Shown here piece by piece: positions 4,159-45,658 of a DNA stretch of 64,000 bases. The notes under the pieces are model-generated. The model was given only the letters and a program-made list of their open reading frames with translations, was not told where the DNA came from and did not search any database. Position numbers and translations under genes: made by a program. Origin of the DNA: Candidatus Nanopelagicales bacterium (GTDB lineage Bacteria > Actinomycetota > Actinomycetes > S36-B12 > UBA5976); NCBI GenBank assembly GCA_030157865.1, contig JAOATY010000035.1, forward strand, positions 13,356 through 77,355, in the 5' to 3' direction. Within the stretch, counting starts at the first letter, position 1. Each line of letters begins with the position of its first letter.

Positions 4159-4588
4159 CAACTAGCTTGGTCAACGCATAATGCGCCATGGCATCGCGTT
4201 GAAATGGTGCCAGCTTTGGATGAATTCCATTAAATCGCTCTAGAAAATCTGGGCTTTCGTTATACATATCTCCGAGGGCTACGTAAGCCTCGGCATTCGG
4301 ACTCCAAAATTGTGAAACCCAGCCAAAGTGATCTGCAATTACGTCTTGAGTGCGGGAATCTTCTGGTTCAACACCTGCATCAATTAACTCGACTAAGCGG
4401 GCATCAATCTCAGCAAGTTCTTTTTGGATTAGTGCGCCGTCTTCCTTCGACCAACCTGACATGCGCTGCTTCGACTCAGCAACATGGCTTGCAGATTCTG
4501 GATACTTTTCAATTAAGTCGCGTTCCCACTTTTCCTGTTGCGCATCGTCTGCGCCTTCAAAAACTTCGGAAGCCTTCATGGAAAACAA
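4151..4588 (-). CDS. stand-alone TipAS-like (antibiotic-recognition domain) protein
   Basis: 145 aa with the TipAS-type pattern (W..E......Y, SPDF..RF....P.LA.F..DA) and no MerR HTH. The family call is from memory of Pfam TipAS. Confidence 0.5.
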   Translation of the reverse strand: MFSMKASEVFEGADDAQQEKWERDLIEKYPESASHVAESKQRMSGWSKEDGALIQKELAEIDARLVELIDAGVEPEDSRTQDVIADHFGWVSQFWSPNAEAYVALGDMYNESPDFLERFNGIHPKLAPFQRDAMAHYALTKLVDD

Positions 4589-6103
4589 TTATTCGGAGAC
4601 GCCAAGTTTTTCGAAGAGCAATTCGCGGACGCGAGCTGCATCGGCTTGGCCACGAGTTGCCTTCATGACGGCGCCAACAACTGAACCAGCAGCTGCAAGC
4701 TTTCCGGACTTGATGGTTTCAGCAACCGCTGGATCTGCTGCTAAAGCTTCATCAATTGCAGCAAGCAGCGGACCGTCATCGGACACAACGGCCAGGCCGC
4801 GAGCCTTAACAATCTCATCAATATCGCCTTCGCCGACAATTACACCTTCGAGGGCTTGGCGTGCCAACTTATCATTGAGCGACCCAGCGGAGATTAATTC
4901 TTCAAGACGCTTTAGATGTGCTGGTGTAACTGGAAGTTCTTCCAATTCAATTCCGCGATCATTTGCAATTCGTGACAATTCACCCGTCCACCATTTGCGA
5001 GCCGCGGCTGGATCTACTCCAGCATCAACTGCTTCAACAATCAGATCAAGGGCACCTGAATTCACCACGGTGTTCATGTCGATCTCGCTCAAACCCCAGT
5101 CAGCGACAAGGCGGGCACGACGTACTGCAGGATTCTCCGGAAGAGCTGCGCGCAGTTCTTCAACCCATTCGCGAGATGGGGCGATAGGTAACAAGTCAGG
5201 TTCTGGGAAGTATCGGTAATCTTCGGCATCTGACTTTGCGCGACCAGATGTTGAAATACCAGTGTCTTCATGCCAGTGACGAGTTTCTTGCACAACGGTG
5301 TCGCCAGCCGCGAGTCTGGCAGCATGACGTGATACTTCATAACGCACTGCGCGTTCCACCGAGCGAAGTGAGTTCACGTTCTTGGTTTCTGAACGGGTAC
5401 CCAATTTTGATTCTGGAGTTTCGCGAAGTGACAAGTTCACGTCACAACGAAGTGAACCCTGTTCCATTTTTACGTCAGAAACACCAAGGCCACGAAGGAT
5501 GTCACGAAGCGCAGCAACGTAAGCCTTTGCAACTTCTGGGGCATACTTACCCGTTCCAGTTATTGGCTTAGTGACAATTTCAATCAGCGGAATTCCAGCT
5601 CGGTTGTAGTCAACAAGTGAATAGTCCGCGCCATGAATACGACCAGTTGCGCCACCAACATGTGAGTTCTTGCCGGTGTCTTCTTCCATGTGAGCGCGCT
5701 CAATAGGTACTCGGAAAGTCTTGCGACCTTCATCGGTATCGATCTCAACGTCTAGATAACCTTCGAACGCAATTGGTTCGTCGTATTGCGATGTCTGGAA
5801 GTTCTTTGGCATGTCTGGGTAGAAATAGTTCTTTCGGGCGAAGCGACACCACTCGGCGATTTCACAGTTAAGTGCAAGGCCAATACGAATTGCAGACTCA
5901 ACGCCAATTTTGTTTAGTGCTGGCAATGCGCCAGGTAATCCAAGGCAGACTGGGCAAACTTGGGTATTTGGTGGCGCACCGAAAACAGTCGAGCAGCCAC
6001 AGAACATCTTTGTGTTTGTGCCGAGTTCAACGTGAACTTCCAAACCCAATACTGGATCAAACTTGGAGATTGCTTCGTCGTAATTCATTGTTGCTTCAAC
6101 CAT
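4589..6103 (-). CDS. gatB: Asp/Glu-tRNA amidotransferase subunit B
   Basis: [20 protein letters not shown] and a C-terminal GatB/YqeY domain. I trimmed the start to the ATG at 6103, which forms a TAATG overlap with the gatA stop. Confidence 0.93.
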
Positions 6104-7944: not shown

Positions 7945-11086
<3,142 letters not shown>

Positions 11087-40395: not shown

Positions 40396-40599
40396 TTACT
40401 TCAGGGTCTTGAAGTGAGCAACCAGGGCGTTGGCATGGCCGTGGCCCATTTCGTATTCAGACTTTAAGAAGGCAACCATTTCCATGTGCTTTTCGATTTT
40501 TGCCTTCTTTAGGATTTTCATCCACTCATCAATTTTCTTTCCATAATTCTTTTCAATTGATGGAAAGTAGGAAGCAGGACCTTTTACTGGCTCAGCCAT
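40396..40599 (-). CDS. DUF4287-like small protein
   Basis: 67 aa: SYFPSIEKNYGK.IDEW ... MGHGHANALVAHFK, matching my memory of the DUF4287 pattern. It sits 2-3 nt from both neighbours. Confidence 0.55.
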   Translation of the reverse strand: MAEPVKGPASYFPSIEKNYGKKIDEWMKILKKAKIEKHMEMVAFLKSEYEMGHGHANALVAHFKTLK

Positions 40600-41726: not shown

Positions 41727-41775
41727 AAAAAATGAGGCGCTGTCATCGTCCGAAGACAACGACAACACCTCATTT
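41727..41775 (-). terminator. intrinsic terminator of rpmE (strand-specific hairpin)
   Basis: 21-bp stem starting 7 nt after the rpmE stop. Four positions are C-A/A-C mismatches on the plus strand but G-U wobbles in the minus-strand RNA. Loop UUCG, followed by a U-run. Confidence 0.7.
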
Positions 41776-41991: not shown

Positions 41992-42100
41992 GGATTTCTC
42001 CTTATTTATACTGTGATCGGGTCGTAGGCTCGGATGCCTACGTGAACCGACCAACCCCTTGATTCTGCCAGTTTTCGGGGATTCCCACAAAACGCCCGAT

Positions 42101-44251
42101 TTAAAGAGGGTAATCGTTCACAAATGAAGGCGTTGCGCCCAATACATCCTCAAAATAGGTGGGAGTTCCCATGTGGAATGGCGCACCTCTAGGGACATAA
42201 TTCAGAGAATTAACTCCATCACTCGTTTGAAGTTGAATCAATTTATAGGTGCCTGACTTAGCATGACTAGGCAACCGAATCGGGATTCGGAATGTGTAGT
42301 CATCACCTGATCGACTCAATAAACACCCTTGCGATCCGATCGGATCATATCCAGGTCCACCTTGAATCGTGGCAAGTTGTGTGCAAGTCATTATTGCGTT
42401 GTTGAAGTAACTAACCCCACCCCAAAAAGAATTGGTAAAGTTCATTATTCCGTCCACCGAGAACTGCAAATTCACCGGCGGCATGTTTCCAGAAAATCCA
42501 CCTGAATCCCTGACTGTAACAATTGCGATTGCAGATGCTGGTCCACCTGCAGTGTTAATTCTCGAAGTTTCCATAGTCATTGAGATCAAAACAGGTGCTG
42601 CGCTGTCCCCTCGCGAAACGTACCCTGATTTCATCAACGGGATATATCCTGGTATCGCAGAGATGTCTAAGAAGCCCGGTCCAGGTTGGCAGCCAGTGCA
42701 ATAATGTGCATTCGTTTGATTGCCGACACCGTCGGAAACCGAGATATTTGTCAGTCGGTACTCACCATCAGTTGCACCTTGAGGAACTCTGACTTTAACG
42801 ACAAAAACTCCAGGTGCAGACTGGCAACCCATTTGATTGTTCGCCATGTAGCTCGGAATTGAATCACACATTGCACCCATGGCACTTCCGTGCAGAGAAC
42901 CTGAAGGTGACGATGACATTTGCTGATTGAGGGTGTTTACATTTGTAAAATTCACGTTTACGGCGCTACTCCATAGGCCGGTGCCGAAACCTATGTCATC
43001 AGATGCTCTTACAACTAAATCAATTACTGCATCTCCGGATGTTGTGTCGACGCTACCTTGATAGGAAATGCTGTTAATTGAAGGTCCTGCAATGTCGCCA
43101 GGCCCAACTTGCTTCACTGTCATTCGCCCGATGTCGAATTTTTCATTTATCCAATTTGGAATTACTCCCGGCGGTCCATACGTACAACTCGTGCAATTGT
43201 TAGTTGGTTTGTACTGGTAAGAAGTGCTGTTTCTTGCGGCATCCCAAACTGTCAAATTCGTAACGAGATAATTCCCTGGGCGGGAGTACTGAGGCATTGT
43301 GTAATCAAATTTCAACAACGGATTAAGTCGGCCACCAGCGACTCGACAACCCATTACTTGAGGCATTATTGAACCTGCTGGCATGCTTGCTCTCCATCGA
43401 GCTACTTTGCCGCATGAGGCAGTAGTTGCCATGCCAGATAAATTCAGGCCTGGGAGCATCTGCTCGTTGCCCATCTCGTCAGTTTGTACTCTGCTTAGAC
43501 TCAAATTAATAGGTGAATTTCCCCAAATTGAATAGATAGGAAAACCACCAGTTAGATCTTGTAGCTGGACATACACGGAAAAATTCTGTGGTCCTGTACT
43601 TGTATCGATAGCAGAAGTAGAAACCCAAACATCTGAAACCGTTGGATCCGAATTATCAAAGAAGCAACCGTACACTCCGCGGTCCATTGTGTCTTTTGTG
43701 CAAGTATTCGAGCCGTTTCCACCCGTCATGGTGTCTCGACCTGCGCCACCATTGAGTTCGTCATCACCTTCATCACCTGAAAGTGAATCCTTGCCGGCGT
43801 CACCAGCTAAGAAATCATCGCTCGTTCCACCGCCAACTTTGTCGTTTCCTCCACCGCCGAGAACTTCATCAATTCCATCAGATCCCGTAAGTGTGTCGTT
43901 TCCGTCGCCACCAACCACAATGTCATCGCCAGCACCACCAGATATCGAATCTTTGCCCATGCCGCCATCGATGATGTCGTTACCGCCGCCGCCGTCAATT
44001 TTGTCGTTCCCACCGAGGCCACAAATAACATCGTCTCCAGCAGTGCCCTTTAGTTTGTTTTTGCCAGAAGTTCCAACGATTGTGCAGGCAGCGCGAATTC
44101 CATCTTGTGAATACGCATATTGAACAGCCGTCTTTTTCTTTTTGGCTTTAGTTCCAATGGCACTACCGGTCGAAGCGTGCGCTAATGGAGAAGCAAGCAA
44201 AGTAACTGCTAGTGCCATAACAAAGGCTGAATAAAAACGGCGAGTTTTCAC
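42101..44251 (-). CDS. secreted protein with RTX-type Ca2+-binding nonapeptide repeats and three C-terminal repeat modules of unknown function
   Basis: Sec signal peptide ([26 protein letters not shown]), then 12 consecutive GGxGxDxUx nonapeptides. Three ~135-150 aa modules follow, each with a conserved Cys pair and ending G.Y.L.N(L/I).(V/T).D..(G/R)N. Confidence 0.75.
43706..44047 (-). repeat. coding tandem array of 27-nt RTX nonapeptide repeats
   Basis: [114 protein letters not shown], with exact 9-aa periodicity. Confidence 0.8.
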
Positions 44252-44374
44252 GATAACAGTTTAGAGAGAAATTGAACCTTATAAGCAACGAAATCAAAAA
44301 GTCGCTAGTTAATGGGTTTTTGGAATCTTGGCCTGGCCCATTTGGCAAAAACTCTCTGGATTAGCCTAGGGACT

Positions 44375-45658
44375 ATGTTTACTCGCCAAGATGCCCTCGA
44401 TCTAGACGCCAAGGATCCGTTGGCAAAGTACCGCGATCTATTCGTTTTCACGGATCCCAACGTTTGTTATTTGGACGGAAATTCACTTGGCCGATTACCT
44501 AAGGCAACTGTAGAAACAATCAATAAGTTCTTGATCGAAGGCTGGGGAACCAAGATCGTAGACGGTTGGGGCGAGTGGATCGATAAAGCAGAAACCACGG
44601 GCGATCTAATTGGCCGAGCCACACTTGGTGCAGCTGCTGGGCAAACTCTTGCGATGGATACTACGAGCGTTAACTTTTATCGTTTGGTTCGAGCAGCAAT
44701 TTCAGCGCGACCTGGACGTAAAACAATTATTACTGATGAAGCAAACTTCCCTACTGACCGCTACATCATGCAAGGCATTGCCGAAGAGCTTGGCCTAAAT
44801 CTTGTCGTAATACCAAATGACTTACAGGAACATTCCACTGGTGAATCTTTCAGTGATGAATTAGTAACTCCAGAAATTCTCAAGCCCTATCTAAATGACG
44901 ACGTGGCACTTGTCACGCTTTCCGTTGTCGCATATCGATCGGGTGCACTTCATAACATCAAAGAACTTACTGATCTGGTTCGCGCCAGCGGCGCTCTTAT
45001 GGTTTGGGATGCCAGCCATGCCGTTGGCGCAGTCGACATGCAGTTTGATCGTGACGGCGTAGACCTAGCTGTTGGTTGCACATATAAATATGGCAACTCG
45101 GGACCTGGCTCCCCTGCTTGGTTGTACGTGAACAAGCGAATTCAAGCTGAGTTACGTATGCCAATTCAAGGTTGGTTTGCGCAACGCAACCAGTTCTTAA
45201 TGGGTTCTGCGTTTGATCAAATTGAAGGAATGCGCGGATTCCAAATTGCCTCACCATCGATCATTGGATTGCTTTGTATCGATGAAGGTTTTGGCATGAT
45301 CGAAGACGCAACAATTGCGCAGATAAATGCCAAAGCCTCAAAGGGCACTGACATGATGATTGAACTTTTTGATCAGTGGCTGGCTCCGCTTGGATATGAG
45401 CTAGTTACGCCTCGGGATTCAAAACTACGCGGCGGACACATCAGCATCTATCACCCAGATGCTGCTCAAATTGCACGCGGCTTACGCGATGACATGAATG
45501 TGATTCCGGATTATCGGGCGCCAAACAGTATTCGCCTTGCCATCTCACCGCTTCCAACTTCATATGTTGAAGTTTTTGATGGCTTTGAGCGGATTAGGGA
45601 TTACACCCAGTCTGGAAAATACAAAGATTTAGATCTCAGCAACGTCAAAGTTTCCTGA
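44375..45658 (+). CDS. kynU: kynureninase (class V aminotransferase fold)
   Basis: YLDGNSLG, WDASHAVG, and PLP-Lys in GCTYKYGNSGPGSPAW. I trimmed the start to the ATG at 44375 (MFTRQDAL...). Confidence 0.8.
   Translation: MFTRQDALDLDAKDPLAKYRDLFVFTDPNVCYLDGNSLGRLPKATVETINKFLIEGWGTKIVDGWGEWIDKAETTGDLIGRATLGAAAGQTLAMDTTSVNFYRLVRAAISARPGRKTIITDEANFPTDRYIMQGIAEELGLNLVVIPNDLQEHSTGESFSDELVTPEILKPYLNDDVALVTLSVVAYRSGALHNIKELTDLVRASGALMVWDASHAVGAVDMQFDRDGVDLAVGCTYKYGNSGPGSPAWLYVNKRIQAELRMPIQGWFAQRNQFLMGSAFDQIEGMRGFQIASPSIIGLLCIDEGFGMIEDATIAQINAKASKGTDMMIELFDQWLAPLGYELVTPRDSKLRGGHISIYHPDAAQIARGLRDDMNVIPDYRAPNSIRLAISPLPTSYVEVFDGFERIRDYTQSGKYKDLDLSNVKVS

Follow-up and report, generated by a model that had tools for sequence, protein, structure and literature searches.

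A strain-variable gene upstream of rpmE in a Nanopelagicales-like actinobacterium encodes a putative Sec-exported protein with an N-terminal RTX array and three Ig-like modules

The 64,000-nucleotide stretch of DNA analysed here (the window) carries a gene for a 716-residue protein. The gene varies between strains, diverges fast and is inserted at one fixed position on the chromosome, a property missed in the preliminary description of this DNA. The protein combines a putative Sec-type signal peptide, an RTX array right behind it and three homologous modules which, on profile comparison, belong to catalogued Ig-like families. On balance it is probably an exposed, non-catalytic binding protein that is exported by Sec, stabilised by Ca2+ and disulfides and subject to diversifying selection at the population level, a function that we infer from its architecture and its variation.

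Results

The gene and its chromosomal site

42101..44251, minus strand: complete gene, 716 aa plus stop, GTG start (ORF list, orthologues)
42097..44357, unstranded: presence/absence segment of 2.26 kb, gene plus upstream spacer (BLASTN, junction sequences)

The gene forms an islet between a kynureninase-like gene and rpmE, lying directly upstream of the latter. In BLASTN comparisons with L002–L006 the alignment reaches position 42096 and resumes at 44358, with about 36 unaligned base pairs in between. Eighteen related contigs have an empty site, among them all 13 metagenome loci that matched the flank, and the site is occupied and collinear with the window in L008 and L009; since these numbers were gathered from several collections and with one exact-match pattern, they are not to be taken as frequencies. 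Where the site upstream of rpmE is occupied, at least four allele types are found, 44–55% identical to the window protein, while the flanking proteins remain 74–99% identical. The dN is 0.44 for the gene, against 0.006–0.18 across ten flanking genes. Within an allele type, selection is purifying (dN/dS 0.057 for the gene against L008). A pseudogene reading was rejected. The closest orthologue, P0001, is 93% identical over the non-RTX part of the protein, and P0002 and P0152 are 50–51% identical over the same part and about 55% over the full length.

Since the same slot upstream of rpmE is held by 44–55% orthologues in several lineages, residence at the site appears to be old. The empty sites keep a short stretch resembling the last codons of the gene, which hints at deletion, and the borders of the 2.26-kb segment carry a weak, imperfect repeat of about 9 bp. 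The gene had been thought AT-richer than its neighbours, which is wrong: its GC content is 0.470, compared with 0.485 ± 0.014 in windows of equal size, and its GC3 of 0.400 falls inside the 0.34–0.49 spanned by the neighbours.

The local gene order, argS-lysA-hom-thrC-thrB-rho ... rpmE-prfA-prmC-sua5-...-atp, matches that of Mycobacterium tuberculosis Rv1292–Rv1311, and the housekeeping proteins of the locus cluster with proteins from metagenome-assembled genomes (MAGs) labelled ‘Candidatus Nanopelagicales bacterium’ or ‘Actinomycetota bacterium’. Both observations bear out the actinobacterial context proposed earlier. Judged from these sequences, the host is a Nanopelagicales-like freshwater actinobacterium and hence monoderm; Gram-positive cell walls have been mentioned for Nanopelagicales (PMC12817590).

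Signal peptide and termini

44174..44251, minus strand: signal peptide, residues 1–26, followed by S (manual n/h/c analysis)
44120..44173, minus strand: linker with conserved Lys-rich patch KAKKKK at residues 35–40 (alignment)
42104..42181, minus strand: C-terminal tail, residues 691–716, without LPXTG or hydrophobic anchor (sequence)

The N-terminal Sec-type signal peptide claimed in the preliminary description is supported by manual analysis, which gives an n-region charge of +3, an h-region from residue 9 with a mean Kyte-Doolittle value of 2.58 and A-H-A at 24–26 (AHA|S), and by equivalent tripartite N-termini in all full-length family members. The true start of P0003 is a GTG-initiated signal peptide. 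Residues 1–40 have a pLDDT below 50 in the AF2 model. The NCBI copy of the protein, P0190, has 705 residues, beginning at M12 and thereby losing the charged n-region.

The N-terminus includes T-R-R-F-Y-S, and the twin arginines R4 and R5 are invariant among close homologues, which leaves a small chance that the protein is a Tat substrate; however, the Tat motif is matched imperfectly, in a short peptide whose h-region is strongly hydrophobic, and the arginine pair is missing in other family members. Export in the folded state of a fold that would depend on Ca2+ and disulfides seems implausible.

Residues K35–K40 are invariant in the alignment of close homologues, and Lys-rich patches are also present in P0003, P0004 and P0005 and missing from distant members. 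At the other end of the protein, the tail is kept in close orthologues only. A regular-expression search found no LPXTG-like motif in the final 60 residues of any of 151 matches, and there is no Cys in or beside the signal peptide, the first being C56; a sortase substrate and a lipoprotein were rejected.

The RTX array

44075..44119, minus strand: N-terminal beta-roll cap, residues 45–59, including C56 (AF2 strands 45–47 and 53–55)
43697..44074, minus strand: RTX array, 14 in-register nonapeptides, residues 60–185, including C77 and C184 (PF00353, register, AF2)
43664..43696, minus strand: C-terminal beta-roll cap, residues 186–196, including C196 (alignment)

The array matches PF00353 in seven stretches, with an E-value of 4.6e-25 and 87.6 bits against a gathering threshold of 23. 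The twelve units at residues 69–176 that had been taken as the whole array are its canonical core, and the full array consists of 14 uninterrupted units over residues 60–185, the end units starting at 60 and 177 being degenerate. Sequence matches in the PDB are to the RTX blocks of CyaA, lipase, serralysin and AlgE. In the AF2 model a three-residue strand recurs every nine residues from 66 to 176 with pLDDT 86–91; the array is predicted to fold as a parallel beta-roll and to bind Ca2+. C56 is invariant across 12 sequences, as are C184 and C196 across 12 family members, all of which show the motif C..D...C[FY][FY]D.

Of 36 RTX-bearing relatives, 33 have the RTX block immediately behind the signal peptide, and just three (for example P0060 and P0134) show the layout of LapA/MpIBP/SiiE-type adhesins. 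The setting of the array had been called unexpected. It is unusual, but not unprecedented, both because most relatives share it and because RTX proteins in Actinobacteria without type I secretion system (T1SS) homologues have already been reported, as a surprise (Linhartova et al., 2010; PMC3034196).

Three Ig-like modules with Cys-closed insertions

43196..43663, minus strand: module 1, residues 197–352, DUF7035/DUF7743-type Ig-like beta-sandwich (Smith-Waterman, AF2, hhalign)
43346..43414, minus strand: module 1 Cys-closed loop C280–C302 (Cys invariant in 33 modules)
43112..43195, minus strand: linker 1 with CTSC (CxxC), residues 353–380 (C353 and C356 invariant in close homologues)
42701..43111, minus strand: module 2, residues 381–517 (Smith-Waterman, AF2, hhalign)
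42824..42868, minus strand: module 2 Cys-closed loop C462–C476 (30% identity between allele types)
42620..42700, minus strand: linker 2 with CTGC (CxxC), residues 518–544 (C518 and C521 invariant in close homologues)
42182..42619, minus strand: module 3, residues 545–690 (Smith-Waterman, AF2, hhalign)
42323..42385, minus strand: module 3 Cys-closed loop C623–C643 (26% identity between allele types)

A BLASTP self-comparison returned no repeats, and Smith-Waterman alignment with shuffling was needed to detect the modules. By that method the three-module homology described earlier is well supported (z = 14.4, 8.1 and 10.9, with none of 300 shuffles scoring as high as observed). The module boundaries, 197–352, 381–517 and 545–690, define units of about 140–155 residues and lie near the limits first given. 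The Cys pairs C280/C302, C462/C476 and C623/C643 and the CTxC connectors C353/C356 and C518/C521 are all present as described, while the C-terminal motif that had been assigned to every module needs qualification, as module 3 deviates from it with SDGVNS in place of D..GN.

The preliminary description did not recognise the module family, which is in fact catalogued. Alignment of the window-family modules with Pfam-defined instances of DUF7035 and DUF7743 by hhalign gave a probability of 99.8% and an E-value of 6.3e-28 over 110 aligned columns. The window protein itself scores 15.9 bits on DUF7035, compared with a gathering cut-off of 27, and its single modules have E-values of 0.01–0.07; P0009, P0013, P0028 and P0034, which align with it over the full length, reach 40–58 bits on DUF7035/7743, past the Pfam thresholds. 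On this profile evidence the modules are divergent DUF7035/DUF7743 Ig-like domains and not a new fold. Module 1 modelled on its own has a pLDDT of 87 and a pTM of 0.80, and the full-length model (pLDDT 76.5, pTM 0.73) shows a regular beta-roll and three beta-sandwiches. The modelled sandwich has two sheets and 7–9 strands, as in solved Ig/FnIII-type domains, and its fold matches are exclusively sandwiches of Ig-like type and adhesin or biofilm proteins built of tandem Ig domains, for example RbmA, FdeC, Bap, integrin legs and TEP MG domains.

The window modules share the D..xP start and the G.Y.L...D..GN end of the repeat proteins in Pfam DUF7035 (PF23034), DUF7743 (PF24893) and DUF7034 (PF23033). 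In contrast to the Pfam-defined instances, which have no insertion, they carry a central insertion of about 15–45 residues with an invariant Cys pair. Ten of the 11 segments extracted for these Pfam-defined instances lack cysteines, and most of the 1,580 matches in a profile search cover just profile positions ~2–45 and ~105–149. The mark of the window-family modules is thus a variable central insertion shut by a Cys pair. This pair is invariant in all 33 modules from 12 family members, and all 14 cysteines of the window protein are invariant in its two closest homologues. In the model of module 1 a helix begins at the first Cys of the pair and the second Cys lies within strand 105–109; from this placement and the conservation, we infer that the module pairs form disulfides. 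The CxxC of linker 1, where pLDDT is below 50 at residues 353–362, is found as CxxC or CxxxC in P0003–P0005 and is missing from distant members.

Variation between allele types follows these structural elements. Identity is 58–67% in the roll and its caps, the N-terminal cap being the most conserved region at 67%, against 20–32% in the module centres and Cys loops (31% in that of module 1) and 19–25% in the linkers (25% in linker 2).

Distribution of the family

Word-indexed homologue searches returned two and six proteins, and it was an exhaustive profile search that opened up the family. The organism labels found on family members are all of Actinomycetes MAGs. A scan of genome contigs with a single peptide pattern, LPAHA..., which the window protein (LPSHA) does not itself match, returned one distant relative. 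A separate scan of viral contigs found no near-identical copies, and neither it nor a BFVD fold search pointed to any meaningful connection with phages. In the literature library searched, neither the names DUF7035 and DUF7743 nor the combination of RTX with Nanopelagicales was found.

Discussion

The architecture suggests the following scheme. In a monoderm Nanopelagicales-like actinobacterium the protein would be exported unfolded via Sec, N-terminus first, and signal peptidase I would cut after Ala26. The RTX block would be the first part to emerge and would form a beta-roll upon contact with extracellular Ca2+, after which seven disulfides (56–77, 184–196, 280–302, 353–356, 462–476, 518–521 and 623–643) may lock the roll caps, the module loops and the linkers. 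The mature protein would then be a rigid, Ca2+-dependent, non-enzymatic exposed scaffold, with the variable module centres and their Cys-closed loops as the interaction surface, which may bind a ligand or be targeted by phages or grazers. Negative frequency-dependent selection acting on this surface would account for lineages that have strongly differing alleles or lack the gene, and variation of this kind may be expected when a surface protein is exposed to phages or grazers. Relaxed constraint on the loops together with recombination could be another source of the fast divergence. As no catalytic family was found for the protein in Pfam, NCBIfam or PDB sequence searches, a surface or adhesin-like role stays the best guess, and to that extent the earlier suggestion of a Ca2+-stabilised surface or adhesin-like protein is retained.

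A more ambitious proposal links two ideas, and we regard it as speculative and unlikely. In this family the RTX block would have come to lie at the N-terminus so as to leave the translocon first, mirroring the first-out position of the C-terminal array in T1SS substrates, and its folding into a beta-roll, driven by extracellular Ca2+, would serve a monoderm cell as an ATP-independent export ratchet and as a folding nucleus. The three hypervariable insertions, each closed by a disulfide and carried by a conserved Ig scaffold, would form a CDR-like recognition or decoy surface, and phage-driven negative frequency-dependent selection would maintain its alleles, the null among them, in Nanopelagicales populations.

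Two other roles for an exported, non-enzymatic protein deserve consideration. It could be a structural envelope component, a Ca2+-stabilised lattice of S-layer-like or wall-associated type that binds no ligand. RTX-containing S-layer proteins such as Caulobacter RsaA are known, the full model weakly matches the S-layer protein EA1 and the matrix proteins RbmA and Bap, the Lys-rich patch, being conserved, could attach to anionic polymers of the wall and the pTM of 0.73 suggests a defined arrangement of the domains. However, the fold matches are low in TM-score, no SLH, LysM or other wall-binding domain was detected in the Pfam and NCBIfam searches, and an essential layer would not be missing from most close relatives, as the 18 empty sites imply, so that we consider this role unlikely. 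A soluble protein released from the cell, for substrate capture or Ca2+-dependent binding, was the other suggestion of the preliminary description, and it would fit a sequence devoid of LPXTG, lipobox and transmembrane anchor. It too is doubtful: releasing such a public good would be costly to a planktonic cell that lives at low density with a streamlined genome, the Lys-rich N-terminal patch may provide non-covalent retention, and presence/absence combined with allelic hypervariability would better suit a cell-associated target.

The clean 2.26-kb indel relative to close relatives and the weak border repeat might be read as signs of recent horizontal acquisition, in which case the gene would have arrived on a mobile element, perhaps out of a Gram-negative bacterium, and would serve no adapted role in its present host. 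This is highly improbable given the host-typical GC and GC3, the lack of any transposase, integrase or tRNA gene at the site, the orthologues in the same slot in several lineages, the stretches resembling the gene's end in empty sites, the purifying selection, the confinement of organism labels to Actinomycetes and the outcome of the viral contig scan. We give equally little credence to a secreted protease, lipase, epimerase or glycanase with the RTX and Ig parts as accessories. RTX proteins are often enzymes, and the module model weakly matches Ig-like domains of GH2 and GH3 glycosidases, but these are non-catalytic beta-sandwich domains matched with TM-scores of just 0.3–0.4, no catalytic family was found, and the signal peptide, the roll, the three modules and the short linkers fill the entire length of the protein. 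Least credible, and largely refuted, is a classical RTX exoprotein or toxin leaving by type I secretion through a C-terminal signal: the array is strong and resembles the RTX blocks of CyaA, HlyA, serralysin and lipase, but it is N-terminal (60–185 of 716) behind a cleavable-type signal peptide, the C-terminus consists of module 3 and a 26-residue tail, there is no pore-forming or hydrophobic domain, NCBIfam toxin models reach 71 bits against a cut-off of 1000, the ten annotated flanking genes are all housekeeping or metabolic with no ABC, MFP or OMF gene among them or in the syntenic contigs (at this locus), the host is monoderm and not Gram-negative (diderm), and a search of RTX-bearing Actinobacteria found no T1SS homologues (Linhartova et al., 2010; PMC3034196).

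Comparison with known systems places the preferred exposed binding protein more exactly. With T1SS RTX substrates (CyaA, HlyA, serralysin/alkaline proteases, Pseudomonas lipase and AlgE R-modules) it shares the GGxGxDxUx array and the predicted parallel beta-roll. In those proteins the array is C-terminal, before an uncleaved T1SS signal, whereas here it follows a Sec-type signal, its roll is flanked by the invariant cysteines 56/77 and 184/196, and there is neither a toxin or enzyme domain nor a T1SS gene nearby. Gram-negative RTX adhesins such as LapA, MpIBP, SiiE and FrhA are non-catalytic extracellular proteins that combine Ca2+-binding RTX with tandem Ig-like domains. They are giant proteins, thousands of residues long, in which an N-terminal retention module precedes BIg repeats by the tens and the RTX block and T1SS signal are C-terminal. 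The window protein resembles them in its combination of RTX with tandem Ig-like domains and its non-catalytic nature, and its fold matches are to adhesin and biofilm Ig proteins; it differs in having 716 residues, exactly three modules of another Ig family (DUF7035/7743), RTX in first place and predicted Sec export. The six RTX proteins of Actinobacteria in Linhartova et al. (2010; PMC3034196) are like it in having RTX without T1SS, but were merely listed, with nothing on architecture, export route or population behaviour.

Flexible genomic islands that encode surface structures are found in Nanopelagicales and in other streamlined plankton, and those of Nanopelagicales have been interpreted under the constant-diversity model (PMC12817590). 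The islet described here is similar, being a strain-variable determinant of a putatively exposed structure at a conserved site, for which phage or grazer pressure has likewise been proposed. In contrast to those islands, which hold glycosylation, cell-wall or pilus genes, it is a single gene of 2.26 kb with a protein determinant, and a term search did not find it among the islands described (PMC12817590).

These findings add no new principle. They do define a recurrent family of monoderm Actinomycetes in which RTX is tied to predicted Sec export and the domains stand in reverse order. The family lends itself to testing whether beta-roll folding driven by Ca2+ serves generally as an extracellular folding device, and it places three Pfam DUFs in a structural and evolutionary setting for the first time. 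The findings also reveal a small hypervariable locus, with a null allele among its variants, beside the universally conserved rpmE in Nanopelagicales-like freshwater plankton, which can be tracked in metagenomes as a readout of strain-level selection by phages or grazers. Were the joint proposal of ratchet and CDR-like surface to be true, the single-gene islet would offer a practical marker with which to follow constant-diversity dynamics among the most abundant bacteria of fresh water.

Transcription signals

44258..44263, minus strand: possible -10 box TAAACT, 6 nt 5′ of the GTG (read from sequence)

A promoter and terminator scan found no sigma-70 consensus promoter in the spacer upstream of the gene and was uninformative about the gene's own signals. 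Rfam had no match in the window, and the fold of the rpmE leader was not significant (z = -1.64). The arrangement of TAnnnT, six nucleotides and start codon is repeated in L008 and L010/L011, and from the placement of the putative -10 box it is possible that the transcript of the 716-residue gene is leaderless.

A variable gene at a fixed site

The RTX gene is a hypervariable single-gene islet at a fixed site, a finding that is new here. The gene order, ...lysA-hom-thrC-thrB-rho-M14 peptidase-DUF4389-kynureninase-like, RTX gene, rpmE-prfA-(DUF4287)-prmC-sua5-glyA-GT4-atp operon, is the actinobacterial arrangement of M. tuberculosis Rv1292–Rv1311. NCBI labels are 'Candidatus Nanopelagicales bacterium', 'Actinomycetota bacterium' and 'Actinomycetes bacterium' in the AtpD 90% cluster, and 'Actinobacteria' or 'Actinomycetota bacterium' in the window's PrfA cluster. 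The RTX gene had seemed slightly AT-richer than its neighbours, but its GC (0.470) and GC3 (0.400) are typical of this stretch (window GC, 48.5%). The features discussed are:

40396–40599 (−), 67-aa ORF between prfA and prmC
41731–41774 (−), strong intrinsic-terminator-like hairpin after rpmE, 20 pairs then a T-run
41992–42096 (−), rpmE upstream leader
42101–44251 (−), RTX gene, 716-aa ORF with a GTG start
44132–44149 (−), Lys-rich patch KAKKKK, residues 35–40
44219–44251 (−), stretch affected by the start chosen in the NCBI copy
44312–45658 (+), kynureninase-like ORF, from its mechanical start

Five related contigs (L002–L006) encode a PrfA 100% identical to that of the window in flanking DNA that is 84–95% identical, and lack the RTX gene, with about 36 unaligned base pairs in place of window 42097–44357. 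When metagenomes were scanned with the conserved sequence upstream of rpmE, a probe built to match occupied and empty states alike, 13 loci were returned, all of them empty. Occupied sites are found in L008 and L009, which align collinearly with the window (87% nucleotide identity) and encode P0001, with 93% amino acid identity to the window protein over its non-RTX part. The same slot holds a P0002-type protein in L010–L012 (131-kb contig; 55% amino acid identity at full length), and P0003 (L015, 44%) and P0004 (L013, 45%) are likewise encoded directly upstream of rpmE; the more distant P0009 is sited elsewhere.

The borders of the 2.26-kb segment have neither mobile-element nor tRNA genes and no clear repeats, and a scan of viral contigs found no relatives. 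The borders (window 42097–42125 and 44300–44330) do carry a weak, imperfect repeat of about 9 bp, CCATTAACT / CGATTACCC, present as a single copy, CCATTACCT, in empty sites (for example L003 7985–7997). The right-hand copy overlaps the last codons of the RTX gene, and a short stretch resembling those codons is present in empty sites. The repeat is too short to be conclusive, yet would be compatible with deletion between short repeats, and these border sequences hint that the gene was lost by deletion, not recently inserted.

Ten flanking genes compared between the window and L011 show dN values of 0.006–0.18 and 74–99% amino acid identity; for the RTX gene dN is 0.44 and synonymous sites are saturated. 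Compared with L008, dN/dS is 0.057 and the gene is under purifying selection. Between allele types the roll and its caps are 58–67% identical, the module centres and Cys-closed loops 20–32%, and the linkers 19–25%. By analogy with Nanopelagicales surface-structure islands, for which it has been proposed (PMC12817590), population-level diversifying selection may act on the RTX gene, whose population behaviour is its most interesting aspect.

Signal peptide and RTX array

The Sec signal peptide noted in the preliminary description is borne out by manual analysis: the N-terminus is textbook type-I, with K2, R4 and R5, a hydrophobic core that starts at residue 9, and A-H-A at 24–26, from which we infer Sec export. 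In P0190, the NCBI/Logan copy of the protein (705 aa; 129,258-bp contig), the annotated start is M12 and the charged n-region is therefore missing; homologues retain it in their longer N-terminal form. The start was probably mis-called by automated annotation, and prediction programs could overlook the signal peptide as a result.

The suspected RTX repeats match Pfam PF00353 (E=4.6e-25). NCBIfam and PDB sequence searches matched only the RTX blocks of CyaA, HlyA-type toxins, lipases, serralysins and AlgE modules, with no match outside residues ~45–190. The 12 units first counted are the canonical core (69–176); read in register, the full array is 14 unbroken nonapeptides over residues 60–185. 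The actinobacterial setting, thought unexpected for RTX, is confirmed but not novel: Linhartova et al. 2010 (PMC3034196) recorded RTX genes in six genomes of Actinobacteria that lack T1SS homologues, and called this surprising.

The protein's architecture recurs among its relatives. Of the top 150 representatives at 50% identity, 16 have a signal peptide together with an RTX block and two or more full modules (all three in 14), and almost all full modules contain exactly two Cys. The RTX block directly follows the signal peptide, usually with a Cys before it, in 33 of 36 RTX-bearing representatives, counting P0001 and P0003, where a stray motif further downstream led to the automatic tag 'mid'; only 3 of the 36 have the classical look of a C-terminal-RTX giant. 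All family members are annotated 'hypothetical' or 'calcium-binding protein' and the only organism labels found are Actinomycetes MAGs. In one member, from L001 (9226–11050; high-GC 'uncultured Actinomycetes bacterium' MAG MFD02832), a frameshift divides the gene between two overlapping frames (9226–10866 and 9965–11050), through either misassembly or pseudogene formation.

Modules and predicted structure

BLASTP self-comparison of the protein did not detect the module repeats. The three homologous modules described earlier are nevertheless supported by Smith-Waterman comparison (z = 14.4, 8.1 and 10.9, above all 300 shuffles), and a nine-sequence alignment has 13 invariant columns, both Cys among them. 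An exhaustive hmmsearch with this profile returned 1,580 proteins at E<=1e-3, the majority covering only positions ~2–45 and ~105–149; these are multi-repeat DUF7035 / DUF7743 / DUF7034 proteins. The window protein's own modules fall below the Pfam cut-off (15.9 bits vs 27), and more distant proteins of the same architecture (P0009, P0013, P0028 and P0034) pass the Pfam thresholds for these DUFs. Profile-profile comparison of 33 family modules with Pfam-delimited DUF7035/7743 instances from unrelated proteins (10 of 11 extracted segments) gave 99.8% probability and E=6e-28. The modules, whose family had not been recognised, are real members of a catalogued family, DUF7035/DUF7743, that is itself uncharacterised; no paper in the library searched mentions DUF7035, DUF7743 or DUF7034. 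Window-type modules differ in having a Cys pair and a central insertion beginning around the first Cys, whereas 10 of the 11 extracted segments have no cysteine.

All 14 Cys of the protein are invariant in close homologues, C56, C184, C196 and the module pairs vary little or not at all across 12 family members, and the conserved module pair noted earlier is kept in 33/33 modules. These positions suggest seven putative disulfides: 56–77 and 184–196 would lie one at either end of the roll, one per module would close a loop of 14–22 residues, and two would be CxxC disulfides in the inter-module linkers. Linkers with CxxC are limited to the rpmE-linked subfamily.

An AF2 model of the whole protein (12-sequence alignment; pLDDT 76.5, pTM 0.73) has residues 1–40 disordered, a beta-roll with one strand per nine residues over 66–176 (pLDDT ~86–91) and three beta-sandwiches. 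Module 1 alone (33 module sequences; pLDDT 87, pTM 0.80) has eight strands and one helix starting at the first Cys. Foldseek matched the full model to tandem-Ig proteins in the PDB (integrin legs, TEP/CD109 MG domains, RbmA, FdeC, Bap, EA1 S-layer protein) with E-values as low as 4e-7 and low TM-scores. For the single module, no solved structure is closely related: the best E-value is 4e-3, TM-scores are 0.3–0.4 and all matches are Ig/FnIII-type sandwiches; a viral structure library gave nothing specific.

The preliminary observation holds with minor corrections, and its interpretation is supported in part. Extracellular proteins with RTX beta-rolls and Ig repeats are kinds already known, not categorically new. 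Ca2+ would trigger folding of the beta-roll, which would be the first part to emerge, and the variable module centres may act as a non-catalytic surface, exposed for binding or as a target. Neither an LPXTG motif nor a lipobox or anchor was found in the window protein. The Lys-rich patch just past the predicted cleavage site, common to all rpmE-linked allele types and missing in distant family members, is the sole candidate feature for retention on the cell, possibly by electrostatic attachment to the wall.

Neighbouring features

No terminator comparable to the hairpin after rpmE was found between the RTX gene and rpmE, so that in genomes with the gene transcripts may read through into rpmE. 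Relatives share a highly conserved rpmE leader, which served as a near-exact probe of 50 nt; Rfam has no match to it, and the fold predicted for it is no better than those of shuffles (z = −1.64). For the kynureninase-like gene, relatives start at an ATG matching 44375 (MFTRQDALD...), where homology to the empty-site contigs begins; this is probably the true start, giving a divergent spacer of 123 nt to the RTX gene. The 67-aa ORF (DUF4287 in syntenic L002 and L011) is missing in L003–L007, where the prfA-prmC gap is 5 nt, which makes it another small case of presence/absence polymorphism in this conserved block. The P0002-type lineage has an extra 582-aa gene with a weak B12-binding match (4225–5973 in both L011 and L012) between the M14 peptidase and DUF4389 genes; it is absent in the window, which makes the rho-rpmE gap a small hotspot of gene-content variation.
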